IMG/VR virus record: IMGVR_UViG_3300027740_000003
Span: 192,001-256,000 of that record
Reading direction: 5' to 3' (one strand)
DNA length: 64,000 bases
Source of the DNA: a virus
Taxonomy: Duplodnaviria; Caudoviricetes
This document shows positions 706 to 35,431 of this stretch, in pieces (within the stretch, counting starts at the first letter, position 1; every line of letters begins with the position of its first letter). The notes under the pieces are model-generated. The model was not told where the DNA came from and searched no databases. It saw only the letters and a program-made list of their open reading frames with translations. The translations under genes and the position numbers were made by a program.

Positions 706-864
706 CATCTGGTTTTCTTCTTTTATGAAGTAAACCTCAACAGACCCGTCTTTAAGAAACTTGGCTGTTAGAATTCCTTTTGAATCTTTTGGCAAATTGC
801 TTCCAGCATGTTCGGCTATAACCACAAGAACTTCTTTTTTATTATAACTTTTTATTAGATTCAT
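697..864 (-). CDS. Small hypothetical protein (55 aa, MNLIKSYNKKEVLVVIAEHAGS...), below the ORF-track cutoff
   Basis: Hand translation; fills the 706-841 gap, overlaps the HAD gene end, and its stop overlaps the end of the convergent + strand gene. Confidence 0.5.
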   Translation of the reverse strand: MNLIKSYNKKEVLVVIAEHAGSNLPKDSKGILTAKFLKDGSVEVYFIKEENQMLS

Positions 865-3056: not shown

Positions 3057-3057
3057 A

Positions 3058-3249
3058 TCAATCGGATATCTCTTCCTGAGATCTCTCGACTGATTTCGGA
3101 GGCTCTGAAGAAAGTAGTCTCAGGTAAGCAGATATTAAATCTCCCAGAGCTCTTGGAATAGGTACTGATACCACTTTTCCGTACTCATTAGAAAATACCA
3201 ATAAAGAAGTTTTTTTATTACATGTTTCAATAGAGTTTAGCGTAATCAT
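3058..3249 (-). CDS. Hypothetical protein (63 aa)
   Basis: ORF coupled to both neighbours. Confidence 0.55.
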   Translation of the reverse strand: MITLNSIETCNKKTSLLVFSNEYGKVVSVPIPRALGDLISAYLRLLSSEPPKSVERSQEEISD

Positions 3250-3575
3250 TTTAATCCTAATTTAAATTTGTTAACAGATCTCCATCCTTGTTTATACCCA
3301 TCAATTAAAAATTGAAATCCGGATAATGTTCTCAGGTATTCTTTCTCTTTATTAGTAAGCCTATTTGATGGAATCAATACGGAAATCTTACCATCCTCTA
3401 ATATTTTCCAAATCTCTCCGTCTTTTTTAGTCTGCCTTTTTACTTGAACTAATGGTTGAACTATATAATCTTCATCTTTAAATAGTTCATTGTCGTTCCT
3501 TAAAGGCATTAGTGGATTATTTTCATCCATTGAATACTCTTCTTCCTCTGTTGGCGTATTTTTATAATCTTTCAT
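3246..3575 (-). CDS. Hypothetical protein (109 aa)
   Basis: ORF with SD-like AAGGTG and ATGA overlap with the next gene. Confidence 0.65.
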   Translation of the reverse strand: MKDYKNTPTEEEEYSMDENNPLMPLRNDNELFKDEDYIVQPLVQVKRQTKKDGEIWKILEDGKISVLIPSNRLTNKEKEYLRTLSGFQFLIDGYKQGWRSVNKFKLGLK

Positions 3576-3578
3576 GTT

Positions 3579-4796
3579 TCACCTTAAACAACTATCTATT
3601 GCAATTACTCCCGTTATTGCTGCGTTATTAATGCCAAATAGCCCGGCGCTTTCTCCTGCCACAAACATACCATCAACTTCTGTTTCTAAATTAGAATTAA
3701 TTACAATAGGTGCTGTTTGTGGTTTTATTGTTGGCGCATGAAAATATCCTCTATTTATTAAATTGGGAAGTATATTATTTACTTCTTCAACCGAATCAAT
3801 TAAAAAATTATATTCTGGAATCTGAGACAATATGCTTTCTTTTTTAACTATTGATTTTATTTTTTCCCTGCCAATCCTATCATTAAATAAAAGAAACGCA
3901 AGTTTGGCTAATCTTTCCATTTCTTTTATTCCATTTTCTGGGAAACATTGCTTGCTAATTATATCAAAAACAACTTTATTTTTCCCCATTTTTTTCCATC
4001 TTTCCTCATTAGATCTGAATGCTGATAAAACAACATCAGCGTGATCCTCTGGAATAACAGCTCCGTCCCAACAAAACGGACCAATCTCTAAATTGTCTTT
4101 TATCATAGAACAATGAGTGTGATTAAGCTCTTTCATATATTGTGCAGAACATTCGGCCTTTATTCCCAGATAAGCATAATTGTCTTCTGTTATTAAATCA
4201 AATGATTTATATATGTCATGTGCCCACCGCCAACCACTTCTACCTACCGCAATAATAATCTTTTCGCATTTAAAATCACCAAGCTGTGTTGTTAATTCGA
4301 ATACTCCATCTTTTTTAAGAATCTGTAATACTTCATTGTCAAAAGAAAATGTTATGTTTTCCGAATCTAATGTAATTTCTGAAATTATTTTTGATAATTT
4401 ATGAATGTATTCCGGTTTCCATTGAATATAATCATTTGTCTGTAATTCGAAACCTAAATCATTTGATTTTTTTTGAATTAAAGAATTGGGCAATTTATCT
4501 TTTATTACTTTAATTGGCCCGGCTTCTGATAATACACTTTTTACCCATTTGTCTACGGGTTTTACTTTTCTTCCATCAATTATTTCTAATATTTTTGATA
4601 TATCTGTGTGTATTTTCCCATCACTAAAAGGAAGACAACCAAGCCAAGCCTCTAACTGGCGGCGTCTTTTTAGCATTGGCCGCCCTAATTCTAATACTAA
4701 TACGCTTTCTTTTTTATAGTTTTCAGCAGCCCTAAGAGATGCAAAAACTCCTGCAACACCAGCTCCAATTATTCCAACATCATATATCTTGCTCAT
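3579..4796 (-). CDS. FAD-dependent oxidoreductase (COG2509-like); start placed at MSKIYD
   Basis: Rossmann YDVGIIGAGVAG, internal IIIAVGRSG, C-terminal ETEVDGMFVAGESAG. Confidence 0.8.
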   Translation of the reverse strand: MSKIYDVGIIGAGVAGVFASLRAAENYKKESVLVLELGRPMLKRRRQLEAWLGCLPFSDGKIHTDISKILEIIDGRKVKPVDKWVKSVLSEAGPIKVIKDKLPNSLIQKKSNDLGFELQTNDYIQWKPEYIHKLSKIISEITLDSENITFSFDNEVLQILKKDGVFELTTQLGDFKCEKIIIAVGRSGWRWAHDIYKSFDLITEDNYAYLGIKAECSAQYMKELNHTHCSMIKDNLEIGPFCWDGAVIPEDHADVVLSAFRSNEERWKKMGKNKVVFDIISKQCFPENGIKEMERLAKLAFLLFNDRIGREKIKSIVKKESILSQIPEYNFLIDSVEEVNNILPNLINRGYFHAPTIKPQTAPIVINSNLETEVDGMFVAGESAGLFGINNAAITGVIAIDSCLR

Positions 4797-4836
4797 GCTG
4801 GCATATATAACCAGCAAATGCTTTCGTAAACATTTT

Positions 4837-6051
4837 TTAAGCAGTCAAATGCCATTTTGTTTTCATTGTATTTTTTATTGATTGTTCATGGGCTAATGTT
4901 ATGTTTTTATTTGCAAATATTGCAAATTCTCTTAGTCTCATTGTTGGATAATATGGGGAAGGATACCCTAAATATAAATTAGTAAATGTTAAATTATCAG
5001 CACAATTAGTAGTGGCTAAATATGTGCTACCTATAGATCCTCTATGTGCCGCTTCGTCATATATGTGAGAAAATGTAGCATTCCAATTATTTGCAATAGA
5101 GGTAATAGAATGCTCATAATTTGGTGGGGGATTTTCCCGGTCAAATCTAGCTGATGTAGAGGCAATAACTACTAATTGCATAGCTGTACTTGTACTAGAC
5201 AACGCATACAAAACCTTTGTATTATTTGACACATCAGTTGCTGCCCCAATTACTCCACATTTAGCACCATTATTAAACACACTAACATAATTAGACGCCT
5301 GCATATATTGTGTGCCAAGAAATACTAAACATGGACCAAATCCATCCACCCAATAAATTGGCTGATTTGCAGCTGTAGCTTGTTCCCACCTATGTCCATT
5401 TCTTAAATCTGCCCAATATAATACACGTTTTTGTTCTGTAGTAATATTTTTAATAAGTATCCTGCCATCAACTCCAGTCCCGTCCCAGATCAAATTAGTA
5501 CCGGTTGAGTCATACATATATATTCCTGGCGTATTATATCCTGCTGTCATTATTTTTGATCTCAAAATAACTCTATACCAGCCATCTCCTAAATCAGACA
5601 AATAACCATCACCAACTGGATAGGATGTTTCTAAATTAGTTTGTTGTAAAAATGAACTAGCCCCTGTTGTTAGATTTAACTTTAATTGTACTCCTTGATA
5701 TAACTCAATTTGAATTGTATCTATTGCTGAGCCAGTGTCTTTTTTAAAATCAGCTTGAAATAAATATGGACCATTTACTCTTGATGGTTGTGATGTTAAT
5801 TTTAAATAAACAACATGATAATTATTTGCCGACGTATTAGCCATCACATAACCGTCTCCAGATGCCCCAATTGTGATATTAGATTGGGTCCAAGATGTCA
5901 AAACAATTTGTTCAGCTTGTGCTCCATAAGTAATCCCTCCATAACCATCTGTATAAATTATAGGATCAAAATTAAGAATTAAATCTCTACCAACATCGGA
6001 ATATAAATTAATTCCAGATGAAATATTTACATTTTGAAGAATATTTGTCAT
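4837..6051 (-). CDS. Putative virion tail/receptor-binding protein, beta-rich (404 aa)
   Basis: WADLRNG...EQATAANQP motif typical of phage tail lectin-like proteins; last gene of the fibre operon; 3 DGY. Confidence 0.55.
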   Translation of the reverse strand: MTNILQNVNISSGINLYSDVGRDLILNFDPIIYTDGYGGITYGAQAEQIVLTSWTQSNITIGASGDGYVMANTSANNYHVVYLKLTSQPSRVNGPYLFQADFKKDTGSAIDTIQIELYQGVQLKLNLTTGASSFLQQTNLETSYPVGDGYLSDLGDGWYRVILRSKIMTAGYNTPGIYMYDSTGTNLIWDGTGVDGRILIKNITTEQKRVLYWADLRNGHRWEQATAANQPIYWVDGFGPCLVFLGTQYMQASNYVSVFNNGAKCGVIGAATDVSNNTKVLYALSSTSTAMQLVVIASTSARFDRENPPPNYEHSITSIANNWNATFSHIYDEAAHRGSIGSTYLATTNCADNLTFTNLYLGYPSPYYPTMRLREFAIFANKNITLAHEQSIKNTMKTKWHLTA

Positions 6052-6800
6052 TTGGTTCCTGTTATTTCACTTATCATTCTATCAAAATCTTCTGAATAAA
6101 GTTGTTTTTGAATTAGTTTCATCTCCGTTGGTCTGTCTTCTTCTGGAGTTCCTTTAATTGATTCATAAAGCCGACCACTATAGATGTCTTTAAAAGAATC
6201 ATCACTAAATGGATAAGCATGATTAGCTTTTTTATATCTACAATATATGAAAGAATGCGATGGACCAATCCATTGTTTGTATTGTCGAGTTAAATCCCAC
6301 CACAATTCATCTTCTCCAAATTTGGCCACAACAGGAAAATTGGGAGAAATATCTATTCTTCCAGCTAATGTGGGCCCATGACAAAACTGTCCGTTGCACC
6401 AACATTCTGATACACCTTCTACAAACCATAATTTATCATCACAATTTTTAATCCAACACGAGTTTCTTCCTACTATCTGTGCCCCTTTTTCTATTGTGTC
6501 CTCTATTGTATTAAGATATCTCGACAAATAACGATCATCACAATCAAATTTTGTAAACCAATCATTTTTATTACTATTCTGTCTTGCCCAGTCTAATCCA
6601 ACATTCATTGGTTGACTTACGCCATCATTTGATTCTAAAATAATCTCATCTTCTTTTTTACACCATTTTGCTCCACAGTTTTGCACTACAATAAGTTTTT
6701 TATTTTTATATAGTTGCTGGTTAAAATTATTCCATGCATTTTGTTCAAATGCTTGTTTTGAAAATGGAACAATGCAATAAATGGTCGTATTAACCTCCAT
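6048..6800 (-). CDS. GT-A (GT2-like) glycosyltransferase embedded in the tail-fibre operon
   Basis: N-terminal CIVPF strand, LIVVQN, MNVGLDWA, DxD motif FTKFDCDD. Confidence 0.7.
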   Translation of the reverse strand: MEVNTTIYCIVPFSKQAFEQNAWNNFNQQLYKNKKLIVVQNCGAKWCKKEDEIILESNDGVSQPMNVGLDWARQNSNKNDWFTKFDCDDRYLSRYLNTIEDTIEKGAQIVGRNSCWIKNCDDKLWFVEGVSECWCNGQFCHGPTLAGRIDISPNFPVVAKFGEDELWWDLTRQYKQWIGPSHSFIYCRYKKANHAYPFSDDSFKDIYSGRLYESIKGTPEEDRPTEMKLIQKQLYSEDFDRMISEITGTK

Positions 6801-9621
6801 ATGTGCCTGTCATTAATAATCTGCAACGTATCATAAATCTATAATTTCGTGATGCAGGATCTAATATTAACCTAATTGTAGCAGCATCAGCAGCAGAGGT
6901 TGCCAATGTCCAATGAGTAACTAAACTATTTATTTCTACATCAAGATAATTGGTTCCAAATGTGTGCAATGTATTGTTGCTATCTTTAACGAATGTGGCG
7001 TAATAACGTTGGTACACGCAACCGGATCCCGCATAACCAAGAGGATTGGTAGCAAGTATATCATATATTGCAACATATGTTCTATAACCATCATGTGGAG
7101 CGTCTAAGTTAGAAATGTCTATGTCAAATTCTTGAGCGGTTCCATCTGTCACTTCAGCGGACCACATATATTCTCTTGTATTAATTGGAACGGTTAGAGA
7201 GCCAGGAACAGACATTACAAATGGTGTCAGGTTTTCCTTTGCATAAGCGTTAGAACAAATTATTGATGAGTGTCCTCCAAAATCAGTGCCTGATCCATCG
7301 TCTTGGTTCAAAACAAAAGCCCCTGTAGTGCTGGTAATGTTGTCAGCACCTATAGTTATATTACCATCACCCGCAGTTATATCAATATTACCATTAACAG
7401 GTCCTGAACCAGTGGATATTGATAAGCTGCCTCCATAATCAGATCCGGAACCACATTGTAGTGTAATGGAGCCGCCAATTCTGTGGGGAGCCTCAGAATC
7501 ATTTCCAGTAATTGTAATTATCCCTGGAGAACCCCAAGTAGCTCCACCTCCAGAAATAACCACTTGTCCACCAGTATGTCCAGCAGATCCGTCTCCAGCG
7601 GTAATGGAAATGTCTCCACCATAACCGTCTAAACCTTCTCCTGCGGCAAAAACAAGATCACCACCATCGTTGGCAATTCCAGTCCCACCAGTAATACTTA
7701 CGCTGGCACCAACTGCTACGCTTGAAGTTCCTCCAGTAATTGAAATAGGACCTCCGGTATCAGCCCCACCTCCTGAAATAGATAATGTTCCTCCAGTACC
7801 ATTAGTGGTAGAGGAGCCGGACCTAATAGCTATATTGCCACCAGTAAATCCGTCTCCAGAAGCTGCCCCACCATAAATATATGTGTGCCCAGCATTACCA
7901 ATCGAGCTATTCCCTCCTCTTATTGTAGCGTCGCCAGAAGCAATTAACGCCGTTTGGTTTCCACCATATATATTAATTTCATTTACGCCAAACAACACTT
8001 TGCTCCAAGTATCTATGTACATAGAAACAGTTGAATCAACATGCTGAATTTCTATTCTTCCATCTGTAGAGCTGCCATCTCCAGGTCTTAGAATTACATT
8101 TCCTCCAATGGCTCCATTTCCGCCGGCAACATAGGCAGATCCGCCAGTGCCTAGTGTAGTAGACCCCCCAGTAATTGATGCTGTCCCTCCCAGATAACCA
8201 TCTCCTTCTGCACTTCCTCCCAGAATAGTAATAGTACCTCCATTTCCCAGAACTGTGGAAGATCCTCCCTGGACAACTACTCCACCAGGAGATCCTGGAG
8301 ACGCAGAGTCTGATTCTCCAGTTAAATGTAATGTGCTGTTGCCAACTAAAGAATTGCCTTGGAAATAAGCAATAGTAGTGCCATCTCTATATTGGAAATT
8401 AATTTTACCATCAGTGCTGGATTCCGCCACACCGCCCATCCTCAGGGTAATATCTCCTCCAACCTGACCGGGACCGCCAGTAATATATACAGGACCACCA
8501 GTCCCGCCACCATTAACTCCATCACCACCAATAATATTTATTTCTCCCCCGGTGAAACCATTATGTGCAACACCAGCGGTTATATTTACATTACCGGCAT
8601 TAACCCCTCCTCCAAACTGTAGGGTAGACGCAGCGGTCAGATTGATACTACCAGGTTTAGTATTACTTTCTGGAAGAGTAATATTTAAATTTTCCCCGGC
8701 AGTTGCCGTAATGGAATATCCATCACTTAAAATAACCAAATTATTATGTATATTTACGGCAGTACCAGATGTGCTTAATAGCGTATCTCCGGCATTACCA
8801 ATATTTACACCGTATCCATCTTGTGGATCTATAGTGATATTTTGATTAATTGAGGAGAATATAGAATTTCCAGTAAGATTAACCGTGTATCCGTCAGATG
8901 TATTAGATGTACCCAGGGTAGCCCCCCACCCTACATTTGCATCAGGTAATGTGGTCCAACCACAAGCTCCTGAACCGTTAGTATTTAATACTTGACCGTC
9001 TAAACCTTGTGTGTCAGGTAAAATAAATGAAATGTTACTAGATACATTAGATCCCTTAAATGTTGTATAATTAGTATCTGCTGCATTATATAATCTAATA
9101 TCTTTTTGTTTATAAATGCCAGCAAACAGATCATCAAATACATAGTGTTGGACAGCTGGTGCTCCTGGATTAAATACTATTCTTTCACCATATAGATAAG
9201 TAATGTATCCATCATTTCCATACCTTACAGTATCATTTGAATTAGCTTGAATTAAAATTAAATTAGCCGTATTTTCTACATTTCTAAAATAAATACTCCC
9301 AGCAGAGGGAAGTCTAATATATCCAGATGTAGATGGGTTAGATCCCACTTCTAATCTACCACTAGCAGATAGATTTAAAATACCTGCATCGGATAATGTA
9401 GCTACAGAGTCTTGAATTAATTTACCTGTAGCTAAATTATATCTAGCCACGGCATTGTCTGTTGCAGATGTTGGCCCAACAACATAACCGTTTATCATTA
9501 TAACAACGGCTGTCCCGGCCTGTATTGTCTCTGGAGCATAGGTTCCAGAAAAATCAACAGCACTACTTATCCAAGTAATATAATAACCAGGAACAGATTT
9601 TGCTCTCATTACATACGACAT
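6790..9621 (-). CDS. Glycine-rich tail fibre/spike-like protein (943 aa)
   Basis: GPTSATDNAVARYNLATGKLIQDS fibre motif; many GGxIxIxGG-type repeats; 7 DGY. Confidence 0.65.
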   Translation of the reverse strand: MSYVMRAKSVPGYYITWISSAVDFSGTYAPETIQAGTAVVIMINGYVVGPTSATDNAVARYNLATGKLIQDSVATLSDAGILNLSASGRLEVGSNPSTSGYIRLPSAGSIYFRNVENTANLILIQANSNDTVRYGNDGYITYLYGERIVFNPGAPAVQHYVFDDLFAGIYKQKDIRLYNAADTNYTTFKGSNVSSNISFILPDTQGLDGQVLNTNGSGACGWTTLPDANVGWGATLGTSNTSDGYTVNLTGNSIFSSINQNITIDPQDGYGVNIGNAGDTLLSTSGTAVNIHNNLVILSDGYSITATAGENLNITLPESNTKPGSINLTAASTLQFGGGVNAGNVNITAGVAHNGFTGGEINIIGGDGVNGGGTGGPVYITGGPGQVGGDITLRMGGVAESSTDGKINFQYRDGTTIAYFQGNSLVGNSTLHLTGESDSASPGSPGGVVVQGGSSTVLGNGGTITILGGSAEGDGYLGGTASITGGSTTLGTGGSAYVAGGNGAIGGNVILRPGDGSSTDGRIEIQHVDSTVSMYIDTWSKVLFGVNEINIYGGNQTALIASGDATIRGGNSSIGNAGHTYIYGGAASGDGFTGGNIAIRSGSSTTNGTGGTLSISGGGADTGGPISITGGTSSVAVGASVSITGGTGIANDGGDLVFAAGEGLDGYGGDISITAGDGSAGHTGGQVVISGGGATWGSPGIITITGNDSEAPHRIGGSITLQCGSGSDYGGSLSISTGSGPVNGNIDITAGDGNITIGADNITSTTGAFVLNQDDGSGTDFGGHSSIICSNAYAKENLTPFVMSVPGSLTVPINTREYMWSAEVTDGTAQEFDIDISNLDAPHDGYRTYVAIYDILATNPLGYAGSGCVYQRYYATFVKDSNNTLHTFGTNYLDVEINSLVTHWTLATSAADAATIRLILDPASRNYRFMIRCRLLMTGTYGG

Positions 9622-9640: not shown

Positions 9641-10333
9641 TCAAATTATTATATTGCCAATAGACCTCATATATTCTTCCATAATCTGATCGTCTGTTAG
9701 CTGGGAATTTATTAGTTTAAAAGACAACATTGTTGTACCAATTGTTAATGGGGTAGCTGCATTTTCTCTTGCACCAATAATAAATGGACCAGTTGTTCCT
9801 CCAGTAGGAGCCGTTAATGTTGTTGAGGTATTTTTTAATATACCATTTATATAAAATTTCAATACTGTGCCAGCAATATTCCTTGTTATAGCAATATAAC
9901 ACAAGCTTGATTTTGGTGGCCTTGCAGAAGAACTATATGTAATATTAACTCCCGTGATATGTTCTGCAAAATAAGAAATTCCCACACCAGAAGATATAAA
10001 AAAACTAAATGCTACATTGCCTGTCTCAAGTTCGTCATTATTTCCATTATCACAAATATATTGACTAGCAGTTGTTGTTGTTGTAAAATTAATCAAAGTT
10101 TCTACTGTTATTTCTCCAAGTGAACACAATGCATCTTCGTGAGTTTTAGTTAGATAAGTTGCCCCATCAAAATAAAAACCAGCAAGATTATTAATCTTGG
10201 CATACATTTCTGTTCCAGATACAGTTAAATTATATCCGTTGCCAGATGAATCATTTAGAGTATTATTAAAATTATATAAAGCAACTGGAGAATATTTGTT
10301 ATCTAAATATGTTATATTTCTGAAAAGGGTCAT
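9641..10333 (-). CDS. LamG/concanavalin-A-like lectin domain protein, paralogue 3
   Basis: ALYNFNNTLNDSSGNG...ITVETLI...YIAITR...LKFYING...IIGA. Confidence 0.8.
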   Translation of the reverse strand: MTLFRNITYLDNKYSPVALYNFNNTLNDSSGNGYNLTVSGTEMYAKINNLAGFYFDGATYLTKTHEDALCSLGEITVETLINFTTTTTASQYICDNGNNDELETGNVAFSFFISSGVGISYFAEHITGVNITYSSSARPPKSSLCYIAITRNIAGTVLKFYINGILKNTSTTLTAPTGGTTGPFIIGARENAATPLTIGTTMLSFKLINSQLTDDQIMEEYMRSIGNIII

Positions 10334-11058
10334 ATAACTCCATATACTGATCCTAATGTTTTATTATATTCGCTGGCAACCTGACTATCAGTTAATTGAG
10401 AATTTATCACTTTAACAGAAAAAAGTATTGTCCCATTTAATAATTGATTACCTCCATTAACATCAGCTCCAACTATTAAATTGCCCAATGTTGTGCTATC
10501 TGCCTCTATTAATATACTTGATGTATCAAATAATTTACCATTCACATAAAATTTTAATATTGTTCCTGCCGAATTTCTGGATAAAGCCGCATGACAAATT
10601 TGACCAACAGGAAAACATGCAGTAGATGTATATGATATATTTACTCCAGCACCATGTTCAACGAAATAATGAAGTCTATTTCCAGAAGAAGCTCCAGTCG
10701 GATTTGCACTAATTAAACTCCACGCTTGGTTTCCTGTTGCTAATTCAGAGTTATTTCCAAATATAACAATAACATTTCCTGTAGGTAGAGCAGTTCCAGT
10801 GGTCCCTGGCAATATAATAATAGTTTCTATTGTTATGGCTCCAAAATTAATAAATGCACTTTCTAGAGTTTTTGTTAAATATTCCGTTCCACTAAAATAA
10901 AATCCAGTAAGACCATTAATGGTTATATATTTTTCAGTACCATCACCCAATGTCAAGTTGTATCCATTTCCAGACGAATCATTTATAGTATTATTAAAAT
11001 TATATAATACCATTGGTGAAAAAGCTGTATCTAAATAATTAAATTTTCTAAGCTTCAT
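10330..11058 (-). CDS. LamG/concanavalin-A-like lectin domain protein, paralogue 2
   Basis: VLYNFNNTINDSSGNG...ITIETII...HAALSR...LKFYVNG...IVGA. Confidence 0.8.
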   Translation of the reverse strand: MKLRKFNYLDTAFSPMVLYNFNNTINDSSGNGYNLTLGDGTEKYITINGLTGFYFSGTEYLTKTLESAFINFGAITIETIIILPGTTGTALPTGNVIVIFGNNSELATGNQAWSLISANPTGASSGNRLHYFVEHGAGVNISYTSTACFPVGQICHAALSRNSAGTILKFYVNGKLFDTSSILIEADSTTLGNLIVGADVNGGNQLLNGTILFSVKVINSQLTDSQVASEYNKTLGSVYGVI

Positions 11059-11765
11059 ACTTCTCCAAAAGAATTTCCAATTGTTTTATAATATTCTAAT
11101 TTTATTTGGTTATCATCTAGTTCCTTATTTAAAATTTTCAAAGATGGCAAAAATCCTCCATTAGGAGTAGAAGTAGTAGCGGCTTTATTAGTTCCAATTC
11201 TAAGAAAACTATTGGTTCCACCAGTAGGAGCATTTAATGTTCCTGAAGTAGCTTTTAGTTCTCCATTTATGTAAAATTTCACAACTGTTCCGGCCGAATT
11301 TCTAGTCATAGCAAGATATGTTAACTGATATGTAGCAAGAGATATATTTGATGTATAAACAACATCTGTTCCGCTGGCTCCCGTATCTGCAAAATAACCT
11401 ATATTACCAGTAGATATCATTCTAATAGAGAAAGAATTGTTGCCGGCAGGAGCGCTAGTGTTAGATCCCATTTGAACTATCCAAAATTCAGAAGATATTA
11501 TTGGAATCATTATTAACATTTCAACAGTTAATGCCCCCAATATTGTTAAAACAGGATCGTTTGATGGTCTGGACCAATATTGTACTCCACCTTTTAGTTT
11601 TAGACCAGTTATGCCATTTTGTTTAGTAAATAATGTGGCTCCGGTTGTTAATGCTAAATCTAAACCATTACCAGATGAGTCAGTTAGAACATCATTAAAA
11701 TTATATAAAGCTACTGGAGAATGTGTTAGATCAAAATAATTTATATTTTTTTTTATGAAGGTCAT
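11055..11765 (-). CDS. LamG/concanavalin-A-like lectin domain protein, paralogue 1 (start at MTFIKK, ATGA overlap)
   Basis: ALYNFNDVLTDSSGNG...LTVEMLI...YLAMTR...VKFYING...LRIG. Confidence 0.8.
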   Translation of the reverse strand: MTFIKKNINYFDLTHSPVALYNFNDVLTDSSGNGLDLALTTGATLFTKQNGITGLKLKGGVQYWSRPSNDPVLTILGALTVEMLIMIPIISSEFWIVQMGSNTSAPAGNNSFSIRMISTGNIGYFADTGASGTDVVYTSNISLATYQLTYLAMTRNSAGTVVKFYINGELKATSGTLNAPTGGTNSFLRIGTNKAATTSTPNGGFLPSLKILNKELDDNQIKLEYYKTIGNSFGEV

Positions 11766-14700
11766 ACAACCCTCCACCTAAAAGAAAATGGATCGTATAA
11801 AATCGTCACCGAATCATTTTCGTTAAGATACAACCCCCCTATTTGTGAAATTATTCTATTATTATCACTACTTGATACATCTTGATGTGAAAGAACAATA
11901 GATTTTGTACCTATATTAATAACTTCTTTTCTTATAATTGCAGCGGCTGCATCAAATCCAGATATAATATATCCATCATCTAAAGCATTTAATCTAAGAG
12001 CAGTAGCTGTGCTAAATCCAGTAGGATTATAATCATTAACATTTGTCGAAAGATCTGTAGGGGTTATAAATGTATCAGCCGTTTCAACAGCAGAAATGTT
12101 AACACGAACATTTATCCTTGACATTGTACAAATAGCATAGTTTATAATGTCGCTTTCGCTTAATCTTATTTGTGCCTCATAAATATTTGAGCCTGATGAT
12201 ATAGTTATAGACTCAGACATGAATGTTGGCATGTATCCATCTACAGTTAATGTACTTCCTATTTGTAAACCTGTAGTTATATTCATCAATCTGACTTCGG
12301 CCTGCAAATAACCGTCAAAAACCCCACTTGTACTGTACAACACTGCTTCAAAATATCCATCCGCAGATGAATAATTTACAGAATTTATTTCAGTTGATCC
12401 AATTGTTTTCCAACCGTCTAGATTATTAAAACCACCACCAATAGAAAATGATATGTATGTTGTTGTGTTGTCAAGAACATTAGCAATATATCCATCAACA
12501 TAATTTCTTGTTGCTGCATCTTGGGTAGCTATTGGATCTGCAAGATTAGTTATATTCAAGCTGCCTGCGCTGTTGCCAGCCACTAATACTTGTGATAATG
12601 TTTGTGTGCCAGACGTTCCTGTTGGCGCTCTTGATTCCCAAATTCTTTCAACAGCATCCCATGTTAAGACATAACCGTCTGTTATCCCACCAATATATGT
12701 CAAGTCTCCACTATTTGTTATTGCAACATATCCATCATTTACAGGATGCGTTAACAAGTCTAAGCTGGCAATATATCCGTCAACATAATTTCTTGTTGCA
12801 GCATCCTGTTGACTAATCGGATTTGATAAATTTGTTATTATAAAACTACCAGCACTGTTTCCTACTGTTAATACTTGTGATAATGTTGGTGTTAATGATG
12901 TTCCTGTTGGGGCCCGTGATTCCCAGATTCCTTCAGCAGCGTCCCAAGTTAAAACATAACCATCTGTTGCTCCACCAATATATATTAAATCTCCATTATC
13001 AGATATAGCAACATAGCCATCATTAACGGGATGAGTTAATAAATCTAAACCAGCAATATATCCATCAACATAATTTCTTGTTGCAGCATCCTGTTGACTA
13101 ATCGGATTTGATAAATTAGTTATTCTTAAACTGCCGGCGCTATTTCCTTCGGTTAGAATTTCAAATAAATTTGAAATAGTTGCTGAACCAGTTCCATTTA
13201 AAACAATATTGTTTCCTGAAGAATCTGTTAAAACAGCATATCCATCTGATTGTCTTATCCAGAATGTAGAATGGCCAGAAGCTGGATTCCCTCCAGGAAC
13301 AGATGATTGCAAATCTAAAACTAATCCAGTAGGATCTATCAGTCCACTTACTGTTAGTTTCCCATCTATGCTAACGTCTCCGTCAAATTCACTATCTCCA
13401 GAAACAAATAATATTGTATATCCGTCATCAGTAAGATTTCCGGGGAAATTTTTAATTATATGGACATACCCATCAAGACCAGGGCCTCCAGCGCCTGGTT
13501 GTAAAAATATACAACCAGATCTAGATATATTACTTACACTTCCTTTTAAGAAAATATTTCCAGCAGATATACTGGTTCCACTTCCAGATTGTAAAACAAT
13601 ATCTCCACCAACACTATTCGCTCCATTTTTAGAACCTGAAGTGATAGTAATATTTCCGGCAGAAGCATTTGATGCACCGGCGTTCCCAGCAGACACAGAT
13701 ATGTTTCCAGATACGGAAGACCCGCCAGAAGCAGTTATAGTAATGTTTCCAGCATTTGCAACTGGATTAGTTTTGATTAATATATCTCCACTATAAGAAC
13801 CAACGCCACCGGTTCCGGTTTCAATTGATATGTCTCCACCAGTAGACGTATTTGATCCGTAAGTTTTTAAAGTAAGAGATCCTGAATTTCCGGCATTTGA
13901 TTGGCCAGCATATACAAGTATACTTCCAGTATTTGACCCTGCCGGACTAGTATAAATATTTATATCCCCCGAGTATCCCGCATTTGCAGGATCTGGAGGG
14001 CCAGTATAAATTGCAATAGTTCCAGTATTTGAGCTACAAGAAGTACCGCTACCTGTAAATATAGATATTTGGCCTGTTGGAGCACTGTTAGTAGCAGTAG
14101 AACCTGTAGATATATAAACAGAACCGCTTGATGTAGCTGTAGAACTAGCCGCTCCAGTAGTTATAGAAACCCCACCACCATCTCCAGAGCTTGTATCTCC
14201 GGTAGCTACTGTTATTACTCCCTGTGCTGGCGATGTAATTAAACTAGAATTAGTAATAACAATATTATAACCGTCTGTAGTATTACCAAGATTTAAAATT
14301 TCAGCTAAAGTTCCTCCACCAGTACCAGTTCCAACAATATGAGTTCTCCAACGGCCTGTTGTTTGGTCATAAATTATAAGAACCAAACCGTTAGGTTCTA
14401 ATATTAAATCAGAACCATCAGATGTAAGAATACGATCCGGAGCACTACTTCCCAGATTTTCATTCATTAATGTTATAGCATAAGAGCCAATATTAACAAC
14501 AATTTTCAACAACATGTCATCGTTTTGCAAAACAGCTAAAAAGCCAGTAATTGTTGCTATTCCCGGACTGTCCAAACGAAGGATTTGTAAACTTGACCAA
14601 TTTGGTGGAGACACATCATTGTTTGCTCCAGCAAACAAAGAATGATTGATAACTTGTTGATAAGCTCCCACTCTAAGAGAAAGGTTGCCTCCGCCAAGAT

Positions 14701-15388
14701 CCAAAATGCCAGCTGTAAGACCATATCCAATCGAAAGTTTACTAGAAAGATATCCGTCAGTTGTATCAATTGCCGACACTTTTACAAATGAATCAGATCC
14801 ACTAACCGTAATTGTTGCAAGATATCCATCACTAACTACTGATTGAACACTATCCCCAACAAAATTTAATGTAGTTATGTCTGTGGAAATAACAGAGCCC
14901 TCATCCATAACTGTAATATATCCATCTCCACCACTAACAGAAATTGTAGCAACATGTCCACCACTAGACACTGCTTGCACATTATCTCCAACAAATTTTA
15001 GTGTTGTTATGTCTGTTGCTACCGTTGTGTTTTCGTCAATAACTGTAGTGTATCCGCCGGAAACAGTTGCGCTTCCAGTACCAGAATCTACTGCCGACAA
15101 AGCACCGGCAAAATGAAGTGTGGTCACTTGATATATTATGGCCGATGTATTATCATCAACAACAGTAATATATCCGTCCCCTCCGCCGCCGTCCCCAAGC
15201 TCCATAGCATCAAGACGCTGCCTTACTGTAAGATAATCGCGGCTGGGATCTATCCCTAGTTCCGTTTCTATGGCAATAATAGCGTCTCGTAATTGATTTA
15301 CTACTTCGGCCTGAACTGGAGTAATTAAATCAATTGCTCTAGGCAGCTCAGTATTCGAATCTATACCGTATGGATATCGTGTGGTCAA
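11762..15388 (-). CDS. Modular long tail fibre-like protein (1208 aa, TTG start)
   Basis: N-terminal TRYPYGID...NQLRDAIIAIETELG, ITVxDExxxxxTTLxFVG repeats, Gly/Ser-rich stack, ITNLxxPxxxQDAATRNYVD repeats; 19 DGY. Confidence 0.75.
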   Translation of the reverse strand: MTTRYPYGIDSNTELPRAIDLITPVQAEVVNQLRDAIIAIETELGIDPSRDYLTVRQRLDAMELGDGGGGDGYITVVDDNTSAIIYQVTTLHFAGALSAVDSGTGSATVSGGYTTVIDENTTVATDITTLKFVGDNVQAVSSGGHVATISVSGGDGYITVMDEGSVISTDITTLNFVGDSVQSVVSDGYLATITVSGSDSFVKVSAIDTTDGYLSSKLSIGYGLTAGILDLGGGNLSLRVGAYQQVINHSLFAGANNDVSPPNWSSLQILRLDSPGIATITGFLAVLQNDDMLLKIVVNIGSYAITLMNENLGSSAPDRILTSDGSDLILEPNGLVLIIYDQTTGRWRTHIVGTGTGGGTLAEILNLGNTTDGYNIVITNSSLITSPAQGVITVATGDTSSGDGGGVSITTGAASSTATSSGSVYISTGSTATNSAPTGQISIFTGSGTSCSSNTGTIAIYTGPPDPANAGYSGDINIYTSPAGSNTGSILVYAGQSNAGNSGSLTLKTYGSNTSTGGDISIETGTGGVGSYSGDILIKTNPVANAGNITITASGGSSVSGNISVSAGNAGASNASAGNITITSGSKNGANSVGGDIVLQSGSGTSISAGNIFLKGSVSNISRSGCIFLQPGAGGPGLDGYVHIIKNFPGNLTDDGYTILFVSGDSEFDGDVSIDGKLTVSGLIDPTGLVLDLQSSVPGGNPASGHSTFWIRQSDGYAVLTDSSGNNIVLNGTGSATISNLFEILTEGNSAGSLRITNLSNPISQQDAATRNYVDGYIAGLDLLTHPVNDGYVAISDNGDLIYIGGATDGYVLTWDAAEGIWESRAPTGTSLTPTLSQVLTVGNSAGSFIITNLSNPISQQDAATRNYVDGYIASLDLLTHPVNDGYVAITNSGDLTYIGGITDGYVLTWDAVERIWESRAPTGTSGTQTLSQVLVAGNSAGSLNITNLADPIATQDAATRNYVDGYIANVLDNTTTYISFSIGGGFNNLDGWKTIGSTEINSVNYSSADGYFEAVLYSTSGVFDGYLQAEVRLMNITTGLQIGSTLTVDGYMPTFMSESITISSGSNIYEAQIRLSESDIINYAICTMSRINVRVNISAVETADTFITPTDLSTNVNDYNPTGFSTATALRLNALDDGYIISGFDAAAAIIRKEVINIGTKSIVLSHQDVSSSDNNRIISQIGGLYLNENDSVTILYDPFSFRWRVV
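12478..13175 (-). repeat. Tandem intragenic repeat, 285-bp (95-aa) period, about 2.5 copies
   Basis: GCAGCATCCTG/GCTGCATC anchors at 13083, 12798 and 12513 (spacing 285); the first two copies are near-identical in DNA. Confidence 0.9.
14790..15175 (-). repeat. Three ~43-aa repeats (GYITVxDExxxxxTDITTLxFVGDxVxAV) near the fibre N-terminus
   Basis: Direct comparison within the translation. Confidence 0.8.
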
Positions 15389-15835: not shown

Positions 15836-16039
15836 CTATTGTTTCTGCTTTATTATTTTTGGCAACTCTATCCCTAAGTCATTTACAAGTTGCGCAAACT
15901 GATTTATTGTTATCTCACAAGCATTTATTTCAAATTTTAAACCATCATTTCTATTTTTAGCCCCAAGAATTACTGCTACGTTTCCAGGAGAACCAATCTT
16001 TATTTCTATAAAACTTCTATCTTCAAAATCTATTTTCAT
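15836..16039 (-). CDS. Hypothetical protein (67 aa)
   Basis: ATGA overlap with map; SD GGAGAA. Confidence 0.65.
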   Translation of the reverse strand: MKIDFEDRSFIEIKIGSPGNVAVILGAKNRNDGLKFEINACEITINQFAQLVNDLGIELPKIIKQKQ

Positions 16040-16800
16040 AAATTTTCTCCAGTAATTTCTGTTATAATATGGACAACATCATCCATTAATGTTATTGAAT
16101 TTTCAAAATGACATCCAATATCTGGGGTTAATACTCCCCAACCATCAGAAGCAGTTTTTGTGGTTGGATATCCAATAACAATCATAGGCTCAATAGCTAT
16201 AGATAATCCGTTTGTTATTCTTACACCTTCATTTATAGAAGATTTATTTGCTATAAACGGATTTTCGTGCAAATTTGGTCCTATGCCGTGTCCACCATAT
16301 TCTGTAATTAAACCGAATGAAGATTTGGAAACAATTTTATTTATAGCATTTCCTATAGATCCTATTCTGTTTCCTATTTTTACAGCCTCCTGGCCTGCAC
16401 GTAAAGCTTTTTTACATACATCAAGCATTTCTACATGCTGTTTATTTTTCGGCTCTCCACATATCCAAGTTCTAGCCGCATCAGCAATTGAACCTTTATA
16501 AGTGGCACCTACATCTATTGATACTACGTCCCCCGACTGTAGTATATAATCAGAAACAATTCCGTGAACTAAAACTTTATTTATAGAAACGCATATTGCG
16601 CTTGGAAAACCATCATAGTTCAAAAACGTTGGTATACAATTATATTCTTTAAAAGAAGAAAAAGCTATATTTTCTAATTCTTTTAAAGAGAGATTAGGAA
16701 CAATTGCTTCGCCACAACTTTTAAGAATATTAGATACACATTGGCCAGCGTGTTTTTGGTTTGCCAGCCAATCATTATTTTTTAATACAACAAAGTCCAT
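16036..16800 (-). CDS. map: Methionine aminopeptidase type I
   Basis: FPSAICVSIN..LVHGI, metal ligands in IDVGA, DAART, GHGIG, AIEPMI, HFENSI. Confidence 0.93.
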   Translation of the reverse strand: MDFVVLKNNDWLANQKHAGQCVSNILKSCGEAIVPNLSLKELENIAFSSFKEYNCIPTFLNYDGFPSAICVSINKVLVHGIVSDYILQSGDVVSIDVGATYKGSIADAARTWICGEPKNKQHVEMLDVCKKALRAGQEAVKIGNRIGSIGNAINKIVSKSSFGLITEYGGHGIGPNLHENPFIANKSSINEGVRITNGLSIAIEPMIVIGYPTTKTASDGWGVLTPDIGCHFENSITLMDDVVHIITEITGENL

Positions 16801-17295
16801 TTAGGAACTCTTTTTTCTACCCTTCTTTTTCTGATTCTGAGTTTTCTCTGCTTTAGAGATAAGAGCAGCTACGGCAGCCATATCATCGTCAGCATCAAAA
16901 CTTGAAGATAAAGCCTCTACGGTAGGAACGTCTTCTGTAGTGGCAGCTGCCTCTTCTTCCTCATCTTCTTCTAAAGCTAATTGTGCCGGTGTTTTTTCTG
17001 GTTTTGTAGCAACTGGAACTCCTCCAATAAGTTTAGCCTTTTCTTCTTTTACTCTCTTGGAGATATCTACATAATCATCATTATTTAAGTTTACAGATGA
17101 TGCGGTTTGTCCAGGTATTTGTCCAGAAATTAGGACTCTAACAAAAAGCTGGTCTAAAGAGCCGGCTCTAGCAGATACTTGATGTAAAGTTTTTTGATCA
17201 ATTACACCTCTGCCCATATTAAGAATACTATTTATATGATCTCTAACAGCAGCTAAGTTTGCCAAATAATTAAGTAATTCTTTATCCATTTTCAA
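16801..17295 (-). CDS. Hypothetical protein with an acidic linker and basic C-terminus (164 aa)
   Basis: ORF coupled to neighbours. Confidence 0.7.
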   Translation of the reverse strand: MKMDKELLNYLANLAAVRDHINSILNMGRGVIDQKTLHQVSARAGSLDQLFVRVLISGQIPGQTASSVNLNNDDYVDISKRVKEEKAKLIGGVPVATKPEKTPAQLALEEDEEEEAAATTEDVPTVEALSSSFDADDDMAAVAALISKAEKTQNQKKKGRKKSS

Positions 17296-17527
17296 CTACC
17301 TCATCTTTTATAGGATCGGCTCTAACAATAGTGCCGTCTTCTTTAATAACATCTGTTCCAAGCAACAGTCTGTACTTGTTATAAATGCTTATAACAACAT
17401 TAGTTGCTTCCAAATCTGCTACCCTGGCAATAGCAACAAACTTTTCAGCTTCCATCTTTGTTGCCGCTGCCCGAGCCCTGGTAGCACTTACTGCATTTAA
17501 TTCTTCTTGTGTAATTTTGTCAGTCAT
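17282..17527 (-). CDS. Hypothetical Ala-rich helical protein (81 aa, start MTDKIT)
   Basis: SD GAGGT upstream of the ATG at 17527. Confidence 0.65.
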   Translation of the reverse strand: MTDKITQEELNAVSATRARAAATKMEAEKFVAIARVADLEATNVVISIYNKYRLLLGTDVIKEDGTIVRADPIKDEVVENG

Positions 17528-17903
17528 TTTTAACCTCTTCATCAAAGACAGAGCCGAAAAGAACCTCGACATCCATGTAATACTTTTCTTTTTTATTAAT
17601 TTTAGATCGGTCAATACATAATTTATAGTGTGGCTTGTTCCATTTTCCAATCAACTCATTTTCTACATATATCCCAGCCTCACCGTCTTTGTTATCTGAA
17701 ATGAATATTTTATTCGTTTCCAGCGTTTTTCTCATTTTAGCCCGCTGAATAGCAGAAAGTGATTCAGGGTCTCCATCGTCCGGTATACAATCCTCAAAAT
17801 CTACACCCATTTGAGACAATACGCTATATATCCACTGATACATTAATATACGAGCACGATCTTTAGCGTCTTGTCTAGATGCTAAGAAAGACATTGATAT
17901 CAT
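17520..17903 (-). CDS. Hypothetical protein (~127 aa; start placed just downstream of the nrdJ stop)
   Basis: ORF track; the longer start would overlap nrdJ by more than 100 bp. Confidence 0.6.
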   Translation of the reverse strand: MISMSFLASRQDAKDRARILMYQWIYSVLSQMGVDFEDCIPDDGDPESLSAIQRAKMRKTLETNKIFISDNKDGEAGIYVENELIGKWNKPHYKLCIDRSKINKKEKYYMDVEVLFGSVFDEEVKND

Positions 17904-17910
17904 TGTAAAA

Positions 17911-20460
17911 TCAGCCACACCCTTTGCTCCATCCACAAGTACAAGACACGCATCCGTCAAAATATATAAGCTCTTGTTTTCCACAAGTTGGGCACTTGCC
18001 TCCAGCCTTTTCCCCATTCACAATGTATTTTTTAAGCACCCTGGACGTTGCAGAGGCAATATCAACCACGTCTTCAGCAGCTTTACTTAACTGATCTACA
18101 AGGAATTTAATAGGAATACCATGTCTCAGTGATGTTGACACCATTCTGAATAATATCTGTTCTTCACCTGTAAATAATGATCCGAAATTTTCTATTACAC
18201 CATTGGTTCCCAATTCAAGTTTATAATGACCATTCTTAACTTTGATCATCTTGCCTTTTTGAGGAATCTTTATAGAAATAGTATCTGGAATAACCCCTCC
18301 AAACATTTCATACGGGGAGCCTTCTTGAAGACCTACTGCCATCAAGTATTTCTTTCCCCTTACCTTTACCTGATACAAATCTGCGTCTAATTCCTTTTTT
18401 CTCTTTGGAGCACTAGTGCTTGTTTTATTTTCAACGATAAGGTTTAATTCTTTTAATTCGTCTTCAGAGAAATTATTAGTATAAATCTCTACTCCGGCGG
18501 ATTTAAGATTAAACGCTAATGTTTTAAAAGGAATATCAGAAACTATTCCGTACATTTTTTTATCTGGGAAAGCGGCAATGCTTTTAACTCCTTTTTTATT
18601 AGCTTCCAAAATTAGATCATATGTATCATGCCACGAGGCGTCTTCTGGCAAAGCATACGTGACGGATATCGACGAATCAACATTTTTCATCAATTTAGAC
18701 ATTAGATCAAGCTTATCTAACGCTTCGATTTGTGTGGCTTTTTTGAATTTAACACCAACCTCTTCTGCGGCCACATCGATAAAAGCGGCAACAGGCAAAC
18801 CTGTTGCTCCGTCCCATGTGTCTTTTACACAATCAGAATCTATAGGAATATCATAGCCTTTCTCTTTGAAGAAAGACCTGACGGCGCCAGGAATACAGAA
18901 GTAGTATTCGTATTTACCAGAAACTCTGGTTCGTTTCCAAAAATACATTCCAAAAGCAGGCTCAACGCCATATGACATAATAAAATCTCTGAACATCAAA
19001 GACAAAGAACCCGTTGGTGCTGTACTTGAACATGTACAATTTCTCATTGCCTCAAATACAAGCCCTTGTTCCATCATATTTTTTATGAAAGGAGATTGCT
19101 CATATTTTTCTCTAACAAATAATCCAAATGATCCCTTTTCTTTTCCTAATAAAATTGATGATTCATACAAAAAATAATTATATGTTTTGTTAAAATCAAA
19201 CATAGCATTATTAGCTTGTTCTGAACCATATTCTAAATTCTGTTTAAACAACCATGCGGCAACATTGGTAATGCCCGCCCCTGTTCTTCTTAACTTCTCT
19301 ATTGCAATTTTTTGATGAGGAGTAGCATAAGTATTACCAACAATTTCCATTGTATTTACATTATCAAGAAATCTGTTAATAGAATAGGATATTGTATTTA
19401 ATTCTTTTGTATATGTCTCATTGTCTGTAGAAAACTTTCCCACATTAATACTAGCCAATACACAAAGGCTTTCTCTAGACAGATATTGTTCAGAACAAGC
19501 GTTGGTTCCAATAATAGGCGCCCCCACGTAATCACTGTTCGACCAATATCTAGCAAGATCAATTTGTTGAATTCCTGGCTCGCCATTTGATGTTGCGTTC
19601 TTTGCAATAAGTTCCAATAAATATCTTGCCTTAACCGTTTTTACAATATTTTCTTCTGGCCGTGTCTTTTTAGCTATTTTATAATAGCCTATTTTATCTT
19701 TCTGACAATCCATATCAACAGAATGTACATCTACATAAACTTTTCCTCCAGCTTTAACGCCAGGAATTGTAAAAGAAAGTTTCCAATCGCCATCTTCTTC
19801 TACTGCTTCATAGAAAGCGTTATTTGTTTGGACAGATATATTAGCGTTCTGTATTTTTGTATAATCACTCTTTACTTTAATAAATTCTTCAATATCCGGA
19901 TGATCAACAGATAATGAAAATAACATAGCTGGTATTCTACCTTTTTGCCCAATATAATTTCCAAGCGAATCCATCAACTTCATCCAATGAACAACTCCTT
20001 GGCTTTCATTAGATGAATTTTTTACTTGTAATCCGCGGGGTCTTAGTTTAGAAAAATCTATTCCTAGCCCTTGTCTATAAGCAGCGGTTTTAGCTACTGT
20101 GTAAGCTGTGTTCTTTATTATGGATTCTAGATTGTCCCAATCAGTATCTTCTTGACATCCTAATGACAAACAAGTACAATTAGCCATTGACACATTTCTG
20201 CCACAATCAGCACCTTGCATTATTGATCCGGCAGGGTGCCACCAATCATTATAAACTTCGTCAAACCATCTTTCCGACCAATATTTTTTTAGTTCTTCTG
20301 TTTCTTCACAGGAAGCTATATAATCACAAACTCTTTTTAAAGCTCTGGAATAATTTTCTCCATCCTGTGAATATTTTTTATTGAAAATATCTATACTAAA
20401 CTGGTTGTTGTTAAAATATTCTTCTACACTGACGTCTTTAACATCTTCAAACTTTATCAT
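17911..20460 (-). CDS. nrdJ: Class II (adenosylcobalamin-dependent) ribonucleotide reductase with C-terminal TSCPD-like and Zn-ribbon region
   Basis: SMANC, GLGIDFSKLRP, active-site TNACSEQ, RRTGAG, APTGSLS, YGVEPAF; terminal CPTC...GCVSCTCGWSKGC. Confidence 0.9.
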   Translation of the reverse strand: MIKFEDVKDVSVEEYFNNNQFSIDIFNKKYSQDGENYSRALKRVCDYIASCEETEELKKYWSERWFDEVYNDWWHPAGSIMQGADCGRNVSMANCTCLSLGCQEDTDWDNLESIIKNTAYTVAKTAAYRQGLGIDFSKLRPRGLQVKNSSNESQGVVHWMKLMDSLGNYIGQKGRIPAMLFSLSVDHPDIEEFIKVKSDYTKIQNANISVQTNNAFYEAVEEDGDWKLSFTIPGVKAGGKVYVDVHSVDMDCQKDKIGYYKIAKKTRPEENIVKTVKARYLLELIAKNATSNGEPGIQQIDLARYWSNSDYVGAPIIGTNACSEQYLSRESLCVLASINVGKFSTDNETYTKELNTISYSINRFLDNVNTMEIVGNTYATPHQKIAIEKLRRTGAGITNVAAWLFKQNLEYGSEQANNAMFDFNKTYNYFLYESSILLGKEKGSFGLFVREKYEQSPFIKNMMEQGLVFEAMRNCTCSSTAPTGSLSLMFRDFIMSYGVEPAFGMYFWKRTRVSGKYEYYFCIPGAVRSFFKEKGYDIPIDSDCVKDTWDGATGLPVAAFIDVAAEEVGVKFKKATQIEALDKLDLMSKLMKNVDSSISVTYALPEDASWHDTYDLILEANKKGVKSIAAFPDKKMYGIVSDIPFKTLAFNLKSAGVEIYTNNFSEDELKELNLIVENKTSTSAPKRKKELDADLYQVKVRGKKYLMAVGLQEGSPYEMFGGVIPDTISIKIPQKGKMIKVKNGHYKLELGTNGVIENFGSLFTGEEQILFRMVSTSLRHGIPIKFLVDQLSKAAEDVVDIASATSRVLKKYIVNGEKAGGKCPTCGKQELIYFDGCVSCTCGWSKGCG

Positions 20461-31501: not shown

Positions 31502-31533
31502 ATATATTCTCCTCTTTCTTATTGTAATATATC

Positions 31534-32801: not shown

Positions 32802-32803
32802 TT

Positions 32804-35422: not shown

Positions 35423-35431
35423 TATATCTCC

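Follow-up and report, generated by a model that had tools for sequence, protein, structure and literature searches.

The tripeptide Asp-Gly-Tyr (DGY) is described here as a short linear motif, new and resembling a sequon, found on the tail proteins of an uncultured phage; its strong enrichment was confirmed and recurs in a distant relative. The DNA under study (the window, 64 kb) spans bases 192,001-256,000 of one viral contig of 435,004 bp and 35% GC content, from a soil metagenome. At the centre of the analysis stands a 1208-aa protein encoded on the minus strand (11762-15388), which was identified as a tail fibre by matches to Phage_T7_tail (29.3 bits against a cut-off of 25.2) and to the tail protein family phrog_1640 (E 6e-15), by a C-terminal domain resembling those of annotated tail fibres, and by the presence of baseplate J and sheath genes nearby. 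This fibre carries 19 DGY triplets, which account for 19 of its 48 Tyr residues and 19 of its 25 Asp-Gly dipeptides, where amino acid composition predicts 0.42; 20,000 shuffled versions of the protein held 0.42 on average and never more than 5, in agreement with the rough figure of well under 1 per 1200 residues given in the preliminary description of this DNA. The triplets lie at residues 71 (window coordinates 15170-15178), 155 (14918-14926), 187 (14822-14830), 211 (14750-14758), 372 (14267-14275), 639 (13466-13474), 655 (13418-13426), 715 (13238-13246), 775 (13058-13066), 790 (13013-13021), 809 (12956-12964), 870 (12773-12781), 885 (12728-12736), 904 (12671-12679), 965 (12488-12496), 1010 (12353-12361), 1025 (12308-12316), 1050 (12233-12241) and 1138 (11969-11977). 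Residues 740-840 and 835-935 are tandem copies of 84% identity, a recent duplication followed by a partial third copy. With residues 835-970 left out, 15 triplets remain where 0.36 are expected, the same number that had been estimated to survive such a discount, and their contexts are unrelated, so that an artefact of a repeat family is ruled out. The earlier per-protein counts (19, 7, 3, 8, 7, 1 and 1) were all reproduced, and the window as a whole holds 48 DGY, including, beyond the fibres and baseplate, one in a 109-aa open reading frame (ORF) and one in a 411-aa DUF4379 ORF.

Across the 435-kb genome, for which counts were made on 566 crude ORFs divided into a virion block of 51 and a remainder of 515, DGY showed the largest excess among the 8000 tripeptides (101 copies against 20 expected, z=18). 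The excess resides in the virion block only, where 80 copies were found against an expectation of 5.3 (approximately 15-fold) and 2000 shuffles yielded at most 14; the remaining ORFs hold 21 against 14.7. The confinement of DGY to virion proteins proposed at the outset was thus upheld as regards the excess, and so was the recurrence of the motif in unrelated sequence contexts: 22 of the 51 virion-block ORFs carry it, strict at all three positions, and it is in this respect over-represented on one class of target proteins independently of fold and context, as sequons generally are. The corresponding DNA pattern, GAYGGNTAY, occurs 101 times in the coding frame over the whole genome, versus 3 and 6 times in the other sense frames and 5 times in antisense. 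Since the pattern is nearly always in frame, selection acts on the protein and not on the DNA, and a DNA-level motif such as a methylation or regulatory site is ruled out (101 in frame against 14 elsewhere). The mixed codons that had been put forward in favor of protein-level selection were borne out by the occurrence of 11 different 9-mers.

The motif is strict in both order and composition. The five other orderings of Asp, Gly and Tyr were each found 5-8 times in the virion block against 5.3 expected, which rules out a mere compositional effect such as an antibody-like richness in these residues. Neighboring tripeptides in the same block showed little or no excess (observed/expected: DGF 8/5.0, DGW 5/1.3, NGY 6/5.5, EGY 0/3.5), DAY (1/4.2) and DSY (2/5.2) were depleted in this genome, and DTY (6/4.9) was not enriched; DGF was altogether absent from 16 fibre homologues that together hold roughly 190 DGY. 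The strictness of the order and of each of the three residues indicates that the hydroxyl, the carboxylate and their spacing all matter. Beyond the triplet, the flanks showed a mild preference for Val or Ile after the Tyr only; the earlier remark that DGY is usually followed by Ile, Val, Leu or Thr holds for the 1208-aa fibre and is weak over the virion block as a whole (Val 12/80, Ile 12/80). No DGY was found in the major capsid protein, the tube-like protein or a 1667-aa internal tail protein. A literature search for "DGY motif" and "Asp-Gly-Tyr" returned nothing relevant to phages.

Other tripeptides were enriched in the genome as well. DII, KDI, IKD and IIE trace to a C-terminal IKDIIE ending (71 ORFs end in IIE), and KNP and NPS to 22-aa repeats containing IKNPS(E/K)E, for example at positions 118050-128000 of the contig. 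DGT was raised approximately twofold in virion blocks, both here (22/10.6) and in the 442-kb relative described below (27/10.6); as it was also raised outside these blocks (28/17.1 and 39/17.6, respectively), it probably reflects a general turn preference unrelated to DGY.

A profile-free phmmer search with fibre residues 640-1208 against 1.8 billion representative sequences returned 2188 homologues, the best 160 of which were distributed bimodally: 104 contained no DGY at all and 41 contained at least four, reaching 21 per 1000 residues. Where the fibre has DGY, the homologues that lack it show residues that vary and are mostly polar. At fibre position 775 they read DTE, DNL or DTQ, and behind a conserved YVD motif, the Asp of which is ancestral, the next two residues vary among TE, NL, TQ, GL and TK. 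Elsewhere, position 1138 is occupied by ASR, AAR or GSQ, position 715 by PNV, position 790 by DGS and position 809 by DGQ. A 41-kb podophage sharing the C-terminal domain of the fibre has NNR at the position of 1138 in a fibre devoid of DGY, and a paralogous internal domain of the 1208-aa fibre itself reads GIA-T, with no aromatic residue, where the C-terminal copy has DDGYI. Judged from these alignments, the folds in which DGY occurs do not depend on it.

Within the lineage, the motif is retained. In orthologue alignments of the tail proteins, DGY triplets were identical in 64% of cells, five times the rate of the remaining triplets (12%); the figure was 16% for DGx triplets other than DGY and 29% for the other xGY triplets. 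The contrast is large, even though the cells do not represent independent events. New DGY triplets had also arisen at other columns in subsets of relatives, replacing NGT, TAR, GSD or DAY, a pattern that points to purifying selection with turnover. A search with the sheath gene identified 58 related viral contigs at 41-77% identity, and loci at 45% sheath identity or more were individually enriched in DGY (for example 14 against 1.2 and 15 against 1.2 expected). A complete 442-kb relative of 44% GC content and only 45% sheath identity was analyzed over its first 400 kb. DGY was again its top tripeptide (70 against 15.5), with 52 against 5.0 in a virion-like block at 260-385 kb. In that block, DAY (13/4.2) and DSY (14/4.9) were each enriched approximately threefold. 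The core of the motif thus seems to be an Asp and a Tyr separated by one small residue, with the tolerated middle residue differing between lineages, which fits a reader that accepts a small middle residue better than it fits a turn dependent on Gly.

AlphaFold2 models of the sheath and of fibre residues 990-1208, analyzed with DSSP, placed all seven modelled DGY sites in coil, in a hairpin turn or at the start of a strand. The three conserved DGY of the sheath lie in an inserted beta domain, in the coil that links its strands, outside the conserved C-terminal core, in a region where the predicted local distance difference test (pLDDT) score was ~80-90. Insertions of this kind face outward in known sheaths. 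In the fibre model, which had a mean pLDDT of 92, the DGY at residue 1010 forms the first three residues of a strand, that at 1025 falls in a lower-confidence loop and that at 1050 in a hairpin turn, and at residue 1138 the Asp-Gly sits in a loop with the Tyr opening a strand. From these secondary-structure positions and the polar residues found at aligned sites in homologues, the Tyr of DGY is predicted to be solvent-exposed.

The tail gene block that carries DGY also contains a glycan island of 22 ORFs and 19 kb on the minus strand (28349-47233), annotated with Pfam and NCBIfam; the glycosyltransferase (GT) locus noted earlier beside the fibre genes is thus real according to Pfam. The island encodes a UDP-GlcNAc 2-epimerase WecB (33749-34831, minus strand; NCBIfam wecB, 251 bits against a cut-off of 210), three NAD-dependent epimerase/dehydratases, RmlC-like and RmlD-like enzymes, a methyltransferase and at least 10 GT ORFs, which include GT2 and GT4/GT1 members and a 925-aa multi-domain protein combining GT2 with a DXD sugar-binding region. 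A hydropathy scan revealed no transmembrane-like segment in any of the 22 ORFs, and neither the Wzy_C ligase/oligosaccharyltransferase family (PF04932) nor a Bac_transf initiating transferase was matched in the 435-kb genome. Membrane and lipid-carrier steps are therefore not encoded by the phage (host enzymes fall outside the scope of this statement), which fits the assembly of a glycan on a soluble acceptor. A 401-aa GT4-like glycosyltransferase (46028-47233, minus strand; Glyco_transf_4, 29.7 bits) abuts the first baseplate gene and was present in five of five large relatives at 37-53% identity. A 323-aa ORF (42303-43274) had no Pfam match, its language-model features resembled GT9 (heptosyltransferase-family) clusters with a score of 0.96, and it was present in three of the five large relatives; the same feature look-up gave only scores below 0.8 for a 622-aa ORF of the island. 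In the 442-kb relative, a GT cluster likewise occupies a DGY-free gap inside the virion block, and the arrangement of viral nucleotide-sugar enzymes and several soluble GTs beside structural genes is conserved in relatives.

The strict ordered tripeptide, the hydroxyl-specific aromatic residue, the location in loops and at strand starts that are polar elsewhere, the restriction to the outer tail of a single clade, the conservation with turnover and the tolerance, varying by lineage, at the middle position together give DGY the look of a sequon read by an enzyme, and the large soluble glycan pathway in the same gene block makes Tyr O-glycosylation the simplest chemistry. We put at roughly 0.4 the probability that an enzyme, probably one that O-glycosylates Tyr, recognizes DGY on exposed turns. 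DGY, or D-(G/A/S)-Y in the distant relative, would then be a short linear recognition motif on exposed turns and strand starts of the fibres, the baseplate wedge and the outer sheath domain in a clade of huge soil phages. Its reader would be a phage-encoded soluble enzyme that modifies the Tyr hydroxyl in the infected cytoplasm, most probably by O-glycosylation, with the GTs of the island in the tail gene block, which lack membrane segments, assembling the glycan on the protein itself. The 401-aa GT4-like enzyme is a candidate for the protein-priming step; we infer that the Tyr undergoes modification, that it receives a sugar and that this enzyme primes the addition. Each subunit set of the tail would then bear a coat of dozens of glycans. 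In its most complete form, this proposal takes D-(G/A/S)-Y as the sequon for O-glycosylation of tyrosine by a phage-encoded system independent of membranes, which would coat the whole contractile tail of the clade (fibres, baseplate and sheath surface), and in that form it is more tentative. With respect to the suggestion of a modification sequon in the preliminary description, protein-level selection, restriction to the virion tail, strictness, dispensability for the fold and the adjacent glycan island have all held up.

Several findings weigh against the glycosylation proposal. None of the island GTs could be assigned to a protein acceptor by sequence, GT8 (the glycogenin-type Tyr glucosyltransferase family) is absent from the genome, and the product of the island could instead be a host-surface or other soluble glycoconjugate. 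DGY is not depleted from non-virion proteins, as it might be if a promiscuous cytoplasmic enzyme read the bare tripeptide, and the capsid, which is also an outer surface, has none. In DGYVLTW-type motifs, Leu and Trp point to the same face of the strand as the Tyr, which may be partly packed. Enrichment was weak (9 against 2.9 in 15,000 aa) in an outgroup at 41-42% sheath identity; no GT2 match was found in its 46-kb fragment at 42% identity, which is too incomplete to count in the comparison. Finally, the co-occurrence of DGY and GTs across related phages, proposed earlier as a check, was uninformative, because every adequately covered relative has GTs. GT2 clusters were found in seven of seven large relatives covering the region, and the one DGY-rich record without GT2 (161 kb) ends, by synteny, before the expected position of the island. 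The examined DGY-rich fibres, two homologues whose contigs were inspected, lie in the gene neighborhood of the window and so belong to the same clade. The association between DGY and GTs is thus a single phylogenetic event and has no statistical weight.

The chief rival to an enzyme-read sequon, and a serious one, is a structural turn motif. According to this explanation, which we consider unlikely, DGY is a clade-specific micro-motif in which a tight Asp-Gly turn and a fixed hydrogen bond from the Tyr hydroxyl, in the manner of a tyrosine-corner-like clasp, would stabilize hairpins and strand starts of long, beta-rich tail proteins in the absence of any modification. The placement of all seven modelled sites at turns or strand starts, as an Asx-Gly type I' beta-turn would predict, speaks for it, as do the 64% conservation of DGY, the mild preference for Val or Ile after the Tyr and the lack of depletion in non-virion proteins. 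A strict requirement for Tyr over Phe is, moreover, a hallmark of tyrosine corners. On the other hand, homologous domains fold without DGY and have polar, non-turn residues such as ASR, AAR or DTE in its place. A type I' turn requires its Gly and should accept Asn for Asp and another aromatic residue for Tyr, whereas NGY is at expectation, although it forms type I' turns more readily, DGF is found at 8/5.0, and DAY and DSY, which a Gly-dependent turn would not allow, are enriched in the distant relative. The classic tyrosine corner, furthermore, reads LxPGxY, and DGY occurs in more than 20 unrelated proteins but in a single virion module.

An adhesion or ligand-binding patch, in which many exposed Asp/Tyr pairs would provide weak multivalent binding to a host polysaccharide or matrix, strikes us as improbable. 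Tyr and Asp are typical sugar-binding residues, the sites look exposed, ConA-like lectin paralogues are encoded beside the fibres, and fibre residues 990-1095 form a jelly roll weakly resembling CBM6/CBM36 and TNF-like lectins (E about 2e-3). Such a patch leaves unexplained, however, both the strict order of the motif, none of the five permutations being enriched, and its presence on the sheath and on proteins of the baseplate interior; DGW, moreover, adds few sites (5 against 1.3), although Trp is the residue that usually stacks on sugars.

A sequon for some other modification of Tyr (phosphorylation, nucleotidylation, sulfation, or oxidation and cross-linking) by a phage or host enzyme would produce the same statistics, and nothing ties the GT island to protein. 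It nonetheless seems a long shot, in that Sulfotransfer_3 is absent from the genome, no candidate enzyme was found, and the glycan island is the only large enzyme set in the virion block. We regard it as very improbable that DGY serves as a tag for docking or assembly, with its turns bound by a protein of the phage, for example a decoration protein or a chaperone acting generally on the tail. The restriction of DGY to one virion module and the dockerin domain of the 1003-aa baseplate protein, which shows that modular docking is used in the baseplate, are in keeping with such a tag, but three residues in unrelated structural contexts make a poor protein-binding site, 19 copies in a single fibre are hard to reconcile with it, and the search for a protein that could read it yielded no candidate. 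Calcium binding, which the preliminary description had listed as an alternative, through loops of the DxDxDG, EF-hand or dockerin type, holds for a small minority of sites, at least one or two of the 1003-aa protein (residue 602, inside the dockerin calcium loop DVNGDGYITSAD, and perhaps residue 594), and is refuted as a general explanation by flank composition, as Asp and Asn are not enriched at -2 or -4 over the 101 sites (Asp 1.1-fold at -4) and most sites have no acidic residue at loop position 12.

Almost all genes of the window lie on the minus strand. Proceeding leftward from 64 kb, the baseplate genes come first and encode, in order, a 513-aa protein with one DGY (62450-63991, minus strand); a 569-aa protein; a 1090-aa Baseplate J-like protein with one DGY (57009-60281, minus strand; E 4.2e-20); a 2230-aa baseplate or wedge-like protein with a Laminin_G_3 domain and seven DGY, including the run DGYTTGDGYVDGY (50315-57007, minus strand); and a 1003-aa virion protein with eight DGY and a Dockerin type I domain at residues 596-664 (47300-50311, minus strand; 39 bits against a cut-off of 22.9). 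The occurrence of a dockerin domain in a virion protein of the baseplate suggests a cohesin-dockerin-like modular attachment in the phage tail. The island (28.3-47.2 kb) follows, and then nucleotide-metabolism genes including a ribonucleotide reductase and an M24 peptidase. Further leftward lie the 1208-aa fibre gene, three tandem paralogues of 230, 242 and 240 aa (9641-11777, minus strand), a Gly-rich second fibre-like protein of 943 aa with seven DGY where 0.42 are expected (6790-9621, minus strand), and a 404-aa protein with three DGY (4837-6051, minus strand). The three paralogues, situated between the two fibres, belong to the ConA-like lectin/glucanase group (Laminin_G_3; E 2.7e-13, 4.7e-9 and 2.1e-13), are Gly-rich and devoid of DGY, and may act at the fibre tip in receptor binding or as accessory proteins. 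Just beyond the window come the genes for the sheath, the tube-like protein, the internal tail and the head. Pfam and PHROG searches gave no match for the 943-aa protein and no family for ten further DGY-bearing ORFs, and a sequence search of the PDB with the 1208-aa fibre gave no match. An FAD-dependent oxidoreductase-like ORF, an RNase T-like exonuclease, the M24 peptidase and the ribonucleotide reductase flank the fibre genes (842-4817 and 16036-20460). This interleaving of metabolic and fibre genes is conserved in synteny, the same set being found beside the fibre genes in the contig of a relative.

To our knowledge, tyrosine glycosylation is a poorly understood chemistry with no known sequon. 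Were the glycosylation proposal correct, DGY would be the first defined sequon for Tyr glycosylation in any organism and the first instance of Tyr-linked glycosylation in a virus, tyrosine glycosylation would be opened to direct test, and glycans would be seen to shield or functionalize the tails of huge phages, as they do the capsids and fibrils of giant eukaryotic viruses. As a modification site of any kind, DGY would provide at once a three-residue tag, a candidate set of writer enzymes and about 80 natural substrates. If the motif were structural, it would still be unusual, in that a single viral lineage would have spread a strict tripeptide through more than 20 unrelated proteins of one molecular machine, and it would be of use for understanding the stability of beta-fibres and as a marker of the virion proteins of the clade.

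Two bacterial systems had been cited as precedents for a DGY sequon, namely Tyr O-glycosylation of Firmicute surface-layer (S-layer) proteins and the O-glycosylation motif of Bacteroidetes, D-(S/T)-(A/I/L/V/M/T). Both are real, and both rely on membrane oligosaccharyltransferases that the phage does not encode, so that the mechanism in the phage would have to differ. The Bacteroidetes sequon resembles DGY in being an Asp-led motif of three residues, found in many unrelated surface or extracytoplasmic proteins, with a hydroxyl acceptor and often a hydrophobic residue next. It differs in that its Ser/Thr acceptor directly follows the Asp, whereas the Tyr of DGY stands at +2 behind a small spacer, and in that membrane machinery moves its glycan from a lipid carrier to the protein in the periplasm, whereas the phage island is devoid of membrane proteins. 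Tyr O-glycosylation is known from Firmicute S-layer proteins, among them SpaA of Paenibacillus alvei and those of Thermoanaerobacter (PMC2943079). The likeness lies in a Tyr acceptor (putative in the phage) on a self-assembling surface protein and in glycans that hold rhamnose and ManNAc, the phage island encoding WecB and the RmlC-like and RmlD-like enzymes. Unlike the phage, with its dozens of sites, strict tripeptide and soluble pathway, all read from sequence, the S-layer systems preassemble the glycan on a lipid, transfer it by a membrane oligosaccharyltransferase and modify few sites with no defined sequon; a WsfB-like enzyme of this type would carry Wzy_C, which is the family left unmatched in the phage genome.

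Viruses are also known to glycosylate their virions in the cytoplasm with enzymes of their own, as in the capsid of chlorovirus PBCV-1, the fibrils of mimivirus, and the capsid and tail tube of mycobacteriophages. The phage case is mentioned in PMC11256854. These viruses share with the phage described here their own nucleotide-sugar enzymes, soluble GTs encoded beside structural genes and non-canonical acceptor sites; their acceptors are Asn, Ser or Thr, mostly on the capsid, whereas here the capsid has no DGY and the putative acceptor is a Tyr on the tail. In bacteria, the autotransporter heptosyltransferases TibC and AAH and the GtfA-type GT4 enzymes glycosylate adhesins in the cytoplasm. 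They are soluble GT-B enzymes acting at many sites on beta-rich adhesin repeats, to which the GT4-like ORF and the GT9-like lead of the phage island may be compared; they differ in using Ser acceptors, and the homology of the phage ORFs to them is at the family level at most, the GT9 label denoting a similarity of features only. By analogy, virus-encoded cytoplasmic glycosylation of virions and the soluble glycosyltransferases of bacterial adhesins thus appear nearer to the proposed modification of DGY than either of the two precedents first cited.

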